From Octopus sinensis (Eukaryota), in the NCBI RefSeq assembly GCF_006345805.1, contig NW_021826643.1, forward strand, positions 1-12,267: a DNA stretch of 12,267 bases. The letters are read 5' to 3'. This document shows positions 2,258-11,899 of this stretch, in pieces. How positions within the stretch are numbered: position 1 is the stretch's first letter; each line of letters opens with the position of its first letter. Made by a program: the position numbers and the translations under genes. Below the pieces are notes generated by a model, which was given only the letters and a program-made list of their open reading frames with translations, searched no databases and was not told the origin of the DNA.

Positions 2258-2481
2258 AGTAGCGAATTTCCCTTTATATAACGGTATTTTTTCATAGCGT
2301 TTTTCAGATGGCCAGATAACCGAAGGGATGGTGTTGTGGTTTTCCATTTCGGCATCTGAAACTCAGAGTTTTATCTTGACTATTGAATAATTGTAACATA
2401 TTATTTAATAGATAAATTTCCTCTATTTATATAATATTGAGGTCTCTTTCTTTCTTTTGTTATCTTACAGTTTTTACCAAT

Positions 2482-2578: not shown

Positions 2579-2688
2579 ATATATATATATATGATTGATT
2601 GATTGATTCTAGTTTCAGCTCACGAGCTGTGGCCATATATATATATATAATATTATATAATATATATATATATATATAATATATATAT
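2483..2688. repeat. (TA)n tracts interrupted by a SINE-tail fragment
   Basis: Direct reading. Confidence 0.9.
2592..2635 (-). mobile_element. Isolated SINE/LINE 3'-tail fragment ending in (AATC)n
   Basis: Minus strand TGGCCACAGCTCGTGAGCTGAAACTAG(AATC)4 forms a small stem-loop plus a simple-repeat tail, typical of a 5'-truncated retroposon end. Confidence 0.5.
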
Positions 2689-2748
2689 GAAAATAGTAAT
2701 GCAATACGAGAGTATTGCTTTCCAGTAAAGAATAGCCCGTGAGGGTAC

Positions 2749-3165
2749 ACATAAAAGTAAATAAATGGTACAACGAAGTACCGATATTTACTGGAAATAG
2801 CGAACGTAATAAATACGACGCTAATGTATAGCTTCACTGCGTATGTACTAGTAAAGATGCGTGTGTGCAACAAACATGAAAAAAATTGTCTTACCTCTAG
2901 GAAGAACATCTGAAAAATGAAAAACCTAGATAACGGATAATGCAGTACCGGTTTCGGATTTTTCAAAATACGAATGCCAATCGTATAATTGATTTATCCT
3001 CATCAGCTGCATAAACCTCAACAATATTTCAAATGTTGCCACATCTACACCAGTACACACGTCTGAACGCCAAAACGTGAAGCTATACATTAGCGTCGTA
3101 TTTATTACGTTCGCTATTTCCAGTAAATATCGGTACTTCGTTGTACCATTTATTTACTTTTATGT
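2749..3165. repeat. Perfect 89-bp inverted repeat, arms 2749-2837 and 3077-3165, 239-bp spacer
   Basis: Manual reverse-complement comparison gives 89/89 identity. The ORF track also shows the same peptide (KLYISVVFITFAISSKYRYFVVPFIYFYV) on both strands. Confidence 0.97.
2940..3012 (-). ncRNA. Minimal type I hammerhead ribozyme (intact core)
   Basis: Minus strand AUGCAG-CUGAUGA-GGAU...(AUACGA/UCGUAU inner hairpin)...AUCC-GAA-ACCGGU-A-CUGCAU. Helix I is 6 bp, the core is fully canonical with G10.1-C11.1, helix III is a loopless palindrome, and GUA cleavage is predicted between 2946 and 2945. Confidence 0.88.
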
Positions 3166-3174
3166 ATATATATA

Positions 3175-3209
<35 letters not shown>

Positions 3210-11285: not shown

Positions 11286-11575
11286 AATTGATCAGAAGTT
11301 AAACAAGAAGGCCATATTGGATGACGTTATGAAAAACACTTTGGAGGACGTAGTCCAAGATACACTATGTTGCAATGACGCTTTAGTTGATATAGTTCTA
11401 GATAGACTTTGTCTGAAGGACATTTTTTATAAGGTGGCCCTAAATACACTACATATGGAAGACACTTTCGATGACGTAGTCCAATGTGTACCATGTCTCA
11501 GGGCAGTTTGAATGATTTAGTCCCAGATACACTGTGCCTGAAGTTCACATTGGACGATGTAGTCCTTGATAGAAA
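11286..11575 (+). pseudogene. Possible exon/decayed ORF encoding a 14-aa tandem repeat (K-D-T-L-D-D-V-V-x-D-T-L-C-L-like)
   Basis: A pyrimidine-rich acceptor-like TTTTATTATTTGTCTCAG ends at 11285. The frame is open to 11511 with a 42-bp periodicity, and the repeat continues after a frameshift (LNDLVPDTLCLKFTLDDVVLDRK). Confidence 0.3.
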
Positions 11576-11899
11576 ATGAAGGACATTTTTGGGTGAAGTG
11601 GTCCTGGAAGAATTATGTGTGAAGGATATTTAAGACGATGTCGTCCCAGATACACAATGAAGGATATTTTTGGGTGAAGTGGTCCTGGAAGCATTATGTG
11701 TGAAGGATATTTAAGACGATGTCGTCCCAGATACACAATGAAGGATATTTTTGGGTGAAGTGGTCCTGGAAGCATTATATGTGAAGGATATTTAAGACGA
11801 TGTCGTCCCAGATACACAATGAAGGATATTTTTGGGTGAAGTGGTCCTGGAAGCATTATATGTGAAGGATATTTAAGATGATGTACTAGATACACAATG
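11575..11899. repeat. 81-bp minisatellite, 4 near-identical copies, each a 43+38-bp dimer
   Basis: Units begin at 11575, 11656, 11737 and 11818. Both subunits start GAAGGATATTT. Confidence 0.95.

Follow-up and report, generated by a model that had tools for sequence, protein, structure and literature searches.

The DNA analysed here, called the window below, is the whole unplaced contig NW_021826643.1 of Octopus sinensis, with a length of 12,267 bases. It contains a truncated copy of a 428-base non-coding mobile repeat with a hammerhead motif, and the two arms of this copy stand back to back. The long arm (2689..3078, minus strand) spans the 428-bp unit from position 33 to its last base, 428, ends at a fixed site, B (2689), and is 97-98% identical to the nearest copies. 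The short inverted arm (3077..3165, plus strand) covers monomer positions 274 to 361 and ends at a second fixed site, A. The arms meet head-to-head with a 2-nt microhomology at 3077-3078 and sum to about 480 nt. Through a repeat scan, (TA)n arrays were found on both sides (2635..2688 on the left; 3161-3209 on the right, where the target is counted from 3166), and a target-site duplication is unreadable within the TA microsatellite at this locus. An initial annotation, made from the letters of the window, had described a ribozyme enclosed by an exact 89-bp inverted repeat in a (TA)n-embedded, ORF-less element, and we found the same. The portion of the long arm at 2749..2837 (minus strand) is repeated in the inverted arm and is the exact reverse complement of 3077-3165 over 89 bp (92 nt and 99% in the repeat listing), and the longest stop-free frame of the 428-bp monomer has 63 codons. 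The stretch 2689..2748 (minus strand), described there as unique sequence, is actually the Penelope-type tail of the family, which separates end site A from end site B and here has a 6-bp deletion compared to other copies. The ends are asymmetric and unlike those of a MITE, as had been said: just one end has a tail, and there are no fixed terminal inverted repeats.

The hammerhead motif is of type I and lies on the minus strand at 2940..3012 (read 3012-2940). Stem I has 6 bp (3012-3007/2945-2940), the core CUGAUGA occupies 3006-3000, and the core is complete, with GAAA as well as GUA at the cut site, which is predicted to lie between 2946 and 2945. Stem II is long, and stem III has 2 bp on the palindrome ACCGGT; this short palindromic form is reported to require two hammerheads for cleavage (PMC4209133; PMC7229834). 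A local scan with Rfam HH9 gave a weak minus-strand match at 2925-3021 (22.8 bits, E 0.0036), which is under the gathering score of 52. When the motif is folded by itself, stems I and II form in the structure of minimum energy, but the catalytic core does not. The folding z of the whole region is -21 (against 100 shuffles), and the inverted repeat governs this fold. The hammerhead in the loop of a long dsRNA stem, as annotated, is a by-product of the insertion in the window and not a property of the element, since 119 of the 220 family loci have no inversion. The complete identity of the arms had also been taken as a sign of recent origin. The identity stands, and the window copy is among the least diverged of the inverted copies, the arms of which are mostly 95-99% alike; youth follows only loosely, as 100% over 89 bp is compatible with a divergence of about 3%. 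The window copy has a single hammerhead and lacks monomer bases 1-32, suggesting that it is probably an ordinary copy and a dead end.

A separate insertion adjoins the copy at 2265..2481 (plus strand). It consists of a Hydra-clade pLTR with its tail, is 89.6% identical to the pLTR of the element at locus L051 described below, and meets (TA)n at the site B of its own family. With the two-armed copy and the end of another repeat (2600-2634), it makes up a cluster of insertions in TA tracts. Elsewhere in the window, two related repeat copies (529-660 and 1034-1170) form a long near-perfect hairpin (z = -7.7), which is followed by CUGAUGA...CGAA in an unusual order. Degenerate CUGANG...GAAA motifs are located at 1325-1360 and 1695-1745, the latter folding no better than shuffles, and an 81-bp minisatellite of 4.1 copies with 96% matches lies at 11553-11884.

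The repeat is not single-copy. A DNA similarity search with the window copy returned 1,805 candidates, of which 40 were scored. Exact short-pattern matches, which are lower bounds of copy number, amounted to 93 for the hammerhead core, 241 for the middle and 395 for the 3' part (a 22-mer), while the reversed control patterns gave 0 matches each. The copy number is therefore at least several hundred, dropping toward the 5' end. We fetched 242 loci and kept 220 after removing 22 duplicates. The dispersed copies are mostly 5'-truncated single arms. The unit is a 428-bp monomer with a GC content of 0.364, and the tail of one unit passes directly into the next unit. Among 164 traced arms, 55 are longer than one monomer, and 6 of 63 inverted copies sum to more than two monomers, whereas the longest one-strand array has about 2.05 units (L231). 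No array of at least three units was seen, including at the places listed for the pattern matches. True dimers with two hammerheads, a class to which the window copy does not belong, occur at 6 of the 220 loci (L120, L187, L195, L231, L251 and L252). Neighbouring monomers within one insertion diverge by 3.8%, compared to 7.8% between loci, and no fixed difference between upstream and downstream monomers was found in 45 adjacent pairs. In contigs from four sequencing runs, presumed to be RNA, the monomer was represented by short fragments with low coverage, and the high depth in them belonged to an unrelated flanking repeat. Two further candidates for family features were rejected. A tRNA-like head joins the repeat at L020 only, among the 40 scored candidates, and the wide spacing at L188 and L200, which had looked like a longer coding parent, is really due to local tandem duplications with their flanks. 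Copies re-duplicated in tandem with flanking DNA, at a spacing of 430-1500 bp, were observed at L188, L200, L211 and L270.

Comparison of the loci showed that copies stop at one of two sites about 65 nt apart: A, at monomer position 355-365 or so, and B, at position 428. For the counts of end classes we used the 191 loci that were not picked by likeness to the window copy. Simple copies ended at A in 115 cases and at B in 5, and inverted copies combined A with B in 50 cases, A with A in 2 and B with B in none, with 19 loci in other classes. The difference in the use of site B between inverted and simple copies is highly significant (Fisher p about 1e-30). A total of 108 of 119 simple copies with end A continue into TA, and concealed micro-inversions were detected in 2 of the 119 simple copies. 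In the inverted copies, B arms stop around site A (monomer 340-403) in 27 of 63 cases and A arms in 3 of 63; short B arms inflate the former figure, yet 8 of 11 B arms well over one monomer halt there too. Such stalling is expected if reverse transcription primed for the B arm meets the A-primed complex on one RNA. Over all traced 5' ends, 22 fell in monomer 345-420 against 9.5 expected in one sample, a strong cluster, but 13 against 11.4 in the other, where no cluster is apparent. A separate enrichment of about 1.8-fold, in both samples, was observed at monomer 1-40 (window 3071-3081 and upstream), a region that adjoins the overlapping palindromes GTTAAC/AACGTT; the window copy stops at position 33.

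The tandem monomer, its dispersed copies, the two 3' ends, the A+B pairing, the microhomology at the breakpoints, the compensation in the hammerhead stems and the direct junctions with Hydra-clade elements are all present in these loci. The most probable reading is that the window copy is one two-armed insertion of a non-LTR retrozyme, i.e., a non-autonomous Penelope-like element (PLE), copied into (TA)n in trans by the reverse transcriptase and GIY-YIG endonuclease of a Hydra-clade PLE. The endonuclease would nick both strands of the TA tract. One nick would prime reverse transcription at the internal site A, the default, which alone would leave a simple 5'-truncated copy, and the other nick would prime at site B. 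The two cDNAs would then join head-to-head, and the resulting inverted repeat would bear a tail on just one side, as in the window. The Poseidon element PAc of Anolis offers a precedent: in vitro, its RT was shown to start at two internal sites and both strands were cut (PMC11167929). The template is a weaker part of this reading: transcripts of copies with two hammerheads might cleave themselves through the dimeric ribozyme form, and the unit-length RNA set free might be closed into a circle, which would let the RT run more than one lap. Arm totals exceed one and two monomers while the longest array has about 2.05 units, so more than a single unit must be available from the template, and a circular monomer may explain both the over-unit arms and the similarity of adjacent monomers. 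A circular monomer template has been proposed (PMC4209133), and circles have been shown for other retrozymes (PMC7229834). For the octopus repeat, we infer the cleavage, the circles and the identity of the helper.

The family was also informative on the hammerhead. The core and the cut-site triplet are intact in 168 of the 193 arms that span the motif. Within these 193 arms, pair 115:152 is T-A in 98 and C-G in 86, pair 103:167 is A-T in 164 and G-C in 10, and pair 102:168 is C-G in 168 and T-A in 10; pair 112:155 is broken in 36. The compensatory pairs fall in stems I and II, and the counts reflect a few subfamily events rather than independent changes. These states nevertheless suggest that the hammerhead fold has been under selection in the different subfamilies. 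We also analyzed whether 5' ends pile up at the predicted cut site. In the first sample (C1-C8, 90 arms; 10 of 100 matches dropped), 10 ends were found against 3.9 expected, for an interval chosen post hoc, and 855 of 3000 simulations reached the p value of the best interval. In the pre-specified second sample (C9 onward, 74 arms; 7 of 81 matches dropped and the listed place C12307 left out), there were 4 against 3.9 expected, and the pile-up was rejected. The lack of replication means that the hammerhead has left no genomic footprint of cleavage in these samples.

These data bear on an alternative that differs from our reading in the template step only and otherwise overlaps with it. Linear read-through transcripts from tandem copies may serve as templates with no circles formed, two RNAs, one for each subunit of an RT dimer, giving the two arms and the hammerhead being a passenger. 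The unreplicated footprint agrees with this, as does the finding of two-hammerhead dimers at only 6 of 220 loci. PAc is predicted to act as a dimer, and hammerhead cleavage was dispensable for it in vitro (PMC11167929); the chimeric loci L269 and L015, described below, show that a single insertion can draw on two distinct RNAs. On the other side, the compensatory changes imply selection on the ribozyme, and the stalling of B arms near site A suits a template shared by both arms. Repeated 5' truncation would moreover erode dimers, and no long masters were seen among the places listed. The linear template is still live, and we regard it as a real possibility that falls somewhat short of an even chance.

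As a candidate helper we found an intact ORF of 708 codons between pLTRs at L051:2461-4587 (minus strand). It has the motifs RWK and DKT, a CxCX5C linker, and CxxC and CxH in the C-terminal EN domain, and the element is shorter than 3 kb, contains a single ORF and lies in (TA)n, all of which are given as characteristic of Hydra-clade elements in PMC8557442 (section 11). By these motifs, L051 is predicted to be a Hydra-clade PLE. The Pfam match to GIY-YIG is weak (E 0.019), the whole ORF gave no Pfam match, and a PDB sequence search with it returned nothing informative. A hammerhead-like motif was read by eye in the pLTR of L051, with CCGAAGA replacing CUGANGA, and no hammerhead was recorded for the Hydra-family pLTR among the 150 best of 176 Rfam results. 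The Hydra family of this genome has two ends 67 nt apart as well, and A was paired with B in all 11 two-armed loci traced (of 27). A query with the helper EN gave 19,238 first-look candidates, including many near-identical copies, which suggests that the helper PLE is a large recent family.

The initial annotation had called the sequence a non-autonomous, ribozyme-bearing retroelement mobilised in trans and had proposed a search for links to RT and GIY-YIG ORFs. Such links exist. The repeat and Hydra elements are joined directly, with no TA spacer, at 3 of 220 loci (L015, L201 and L269), and the multi-copy state and the Penelope-type geometry also bear out that description. At L015, a GIY-YIG-type ORF abuts the repeat with its 3' end. 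We rejected the reading of this locus as an ORF with its own pLTR, since 19 sister loci of the ORF bear another pLTR, and L015 is therefore a chimera. At L269:780-1430, a single insertion has an inverted arm that begins at site B of the Hydra element and another arm that begins at site A of the repeat, and the latter passes over into Hydra sequence where the two share a microhomology of 4 nt. In two or more of the three Hydra chimeras, an arm starts at a Hydra end site. At L084:865-1180, the repeat directly abuts the 3' end of a different PLE, which we take to be Neptune-like from its motifs; template switches or target junctions are thus not exclusive to the Hydra family.

It is unlikely that the repeat derives from a different PLE family (Neptune, Poseidon or an extinct Hydra element), as its solo pLTR or a deleted form of it, and that this family supplies the enzyme. 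Several PLE families are present in the genome, L084 joins the repeat to one of them, and in Xenopus the retrozymes of 24 of 57 families are homologous to PLE pLTRs (bioRxiv 10.64898/2026.07.22.740005). However, apart from the chimeras, no upstream ORF was found in the 220 loci, where the monomer start is preceded by the repeat's own tail, and the three chimeras with the Hydra family, of which at least two have an arm from a Hydra end site, point to the Hydra enzyme. Homology of the monomer to PLE pLTRs was not detected in 19 + 8 + 23 loci, which represent part of the PLE diversity of the genome, and no parent element was found among them; a second Hydra-like family was rejected as the parent, with no match in its 23 loci. 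For copying by the Hydra-clade enzyme, we propose tentatively, as one possibility among others, that a circular hammerhead RNA with no homology to the helper is recognised through position or structure alone, and that priming is ordered, with the strand nicked first using A and the strand nicked second using B, even when the two RNAs used in one insertion are those of the retrozyme and the helper (L269).

The inner parts of the inverted copies show how the arms may have been joined. The inner breakpoints are variable, as the initial annotation had proposed to examine, and in 42 of 63 inverted copies the two arms share 1-7 nt where they meet. The inverted arm ranges from about 26 to 738 nt, and the longer arm may be either A or B. 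Both arms halt at an equal position in 3 of 63 copies and at unequal positions in the other 60. One two-armed copy, L153, lies outside a microsatellite and has a 15-bp target duplication. An inverted arm might also arise by fold-back self-priming of one cDNA, or from an antisense template, instead of second-strand priming at B. Self-priming has been proposed for palindromic junctions of rotifer Penelope elements (PMC3846280), and the three copies with equal arm stops fit it. The 60 copies with unequal stops do not, nor does the excess of A+B ends over A+A (50 versus 2), and either arm may be the longer one and hold sequence that is missing from the other (the tail or an upstream part), which fold-back copying cannot supply. 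We therefore consider fold-back very improbable as the general route. A MITE or DNA transposon with terminal inverted repeats and a TA duplication, or an assembly artefact, can practically be dismissed: the inverted ends are bordered by TA, and the contig is short and unplaced with no public contig crossing the inversion junction, but the inverted arms are of widely differing length and missing from most copies, the copies are 5'-truncated and partly tandem, the A+B ends and variable breakpoints exclude a transposon with fixed terminal inverted repeats, and an assembly artefact, unlikely as the source of the inversion, would not yield the same two-arm plan with different breakpoints at 67 of 220 loci.

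The octopus repeat resembles the metazoan non-LTR retrozymes as described in PMC7229834 and bioRxiv 10.64898/2026.07.22.740005. Its tandem monomer lacks an ORF, measures a few hundred bases and has 36% GC; each unit contains a single type I hammerhead, whose stem III is short, palindromic and fit for dimeric cleavage; and it occurs as scattered monomers and dimers, and mobilisation by PLEs has been proposed for those retrozymes. It differs from them in that no arrays of three or more units were seen and most copies are 5'-truncated single arms, and in its two fixed ends, its tail and its A+B inversions in (TA)n, which do not appear in the descriptions consulted. No homology to a PLE pLTR was found for it, and its cleavage and circles are predictions. 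With the Hydra-clade PLEs of Craig et al. 2021 (PMC8557442), it shares (TA)n targeting, a tail at one end, head-to-head 5'-truncated arms and a hammerhead in the terminal repeat, and the Hydra family of the octopus genome follows the same A+B rule. Unlike this family, the repeat is ORF-less and has no detectable homology to the Hydra-family pLTR. The hammerhead is 200 nt upstream of site A in the repeat, compared to about 45 nt for the hammerhead-like motif in the Hydra family, and the tails are 62-67 nt long, compared to the 30-40 bp quoted for PLEs (PMC8557442).

In Poseidon PAc, two internal RT starts also define a tail, the target is AT-rich and both strands are cut (Frangieh et al. 2024, PMC11167929). 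PAc is autonomous, however, and its start sites were alike on both strands in vitro, whereas the genomic record of the octopus repeat shows one site per arm (50:2:0), with site A as the default. The Penelope elements of Adineta vaga (Arkhipova et al. 2013, PMC3846280) are similar in that the tail is optional on one inverted pLTR, that a short overlap lies at the inverted junction and that pLTR cis-elements suffice for mobilisation in trans; they differ in their low copy number and in that they encode proteins or are captured genes. Self-priming was the explanation given for the palindromic junctions in the rotifer, and it suits only 3 of the 63 inverted octopus copies.

Taken by their traits, the copies have one hammerhead per unit, no coding capacity and two-hammerhead tandems, as retrozymes do, and two 3' ends, a tail at one end, head-to-head 5'-truncated arms and partial tandems, as EN+ PLEs do. 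An ORF for RT and GIY-YIG between pLTRs, the trait of an autonomous PLE, is absent from the repeat, as are the fixed terminal inverted repeats in all copies that characterise a MITE. The repeat thus behaves as a PLE and has the testable marks of a non-LTR retrozyme, and it is not an autonomous PLE. A tail on one inverted arm (PMC3846280; PMC8557442) and a link between retrozymes and PLEs (bioRxiv 10.64898/2026.07.22.740005) have already been published. Literature searches, covering main texts, yielded no paper that describes the 428-bp family, an A+B rule or chimeras of a retrozyme with its helper, and the supplement of Craig et al. may list the helper family. What is added to the earlier work is the rule of one site per arm, obtained from the A and B counts.

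The origin of the tandem and inverted ends of PLEs, and of their one-sided tail, is still open according to PMC8557442 and PMC11167929. Any mechanism proposed for them must explain the counts given here, i.e., A+B 50, A+A 2 and B+B 0 in inverted copies and an A:B ratio of 115:5 in simple copies. The enzyme that moves animal retrozymes has been inferred only from co-occurrence and likeness to pLTRs (bioRxiv 10.64898/2026.07.22.740005). The octopus genome offers a concrete pair, the predicted RNA of 428 nt and the intact Hydra-clade ORF of 708 codons, both from one genome and linked by chimeric insertions.
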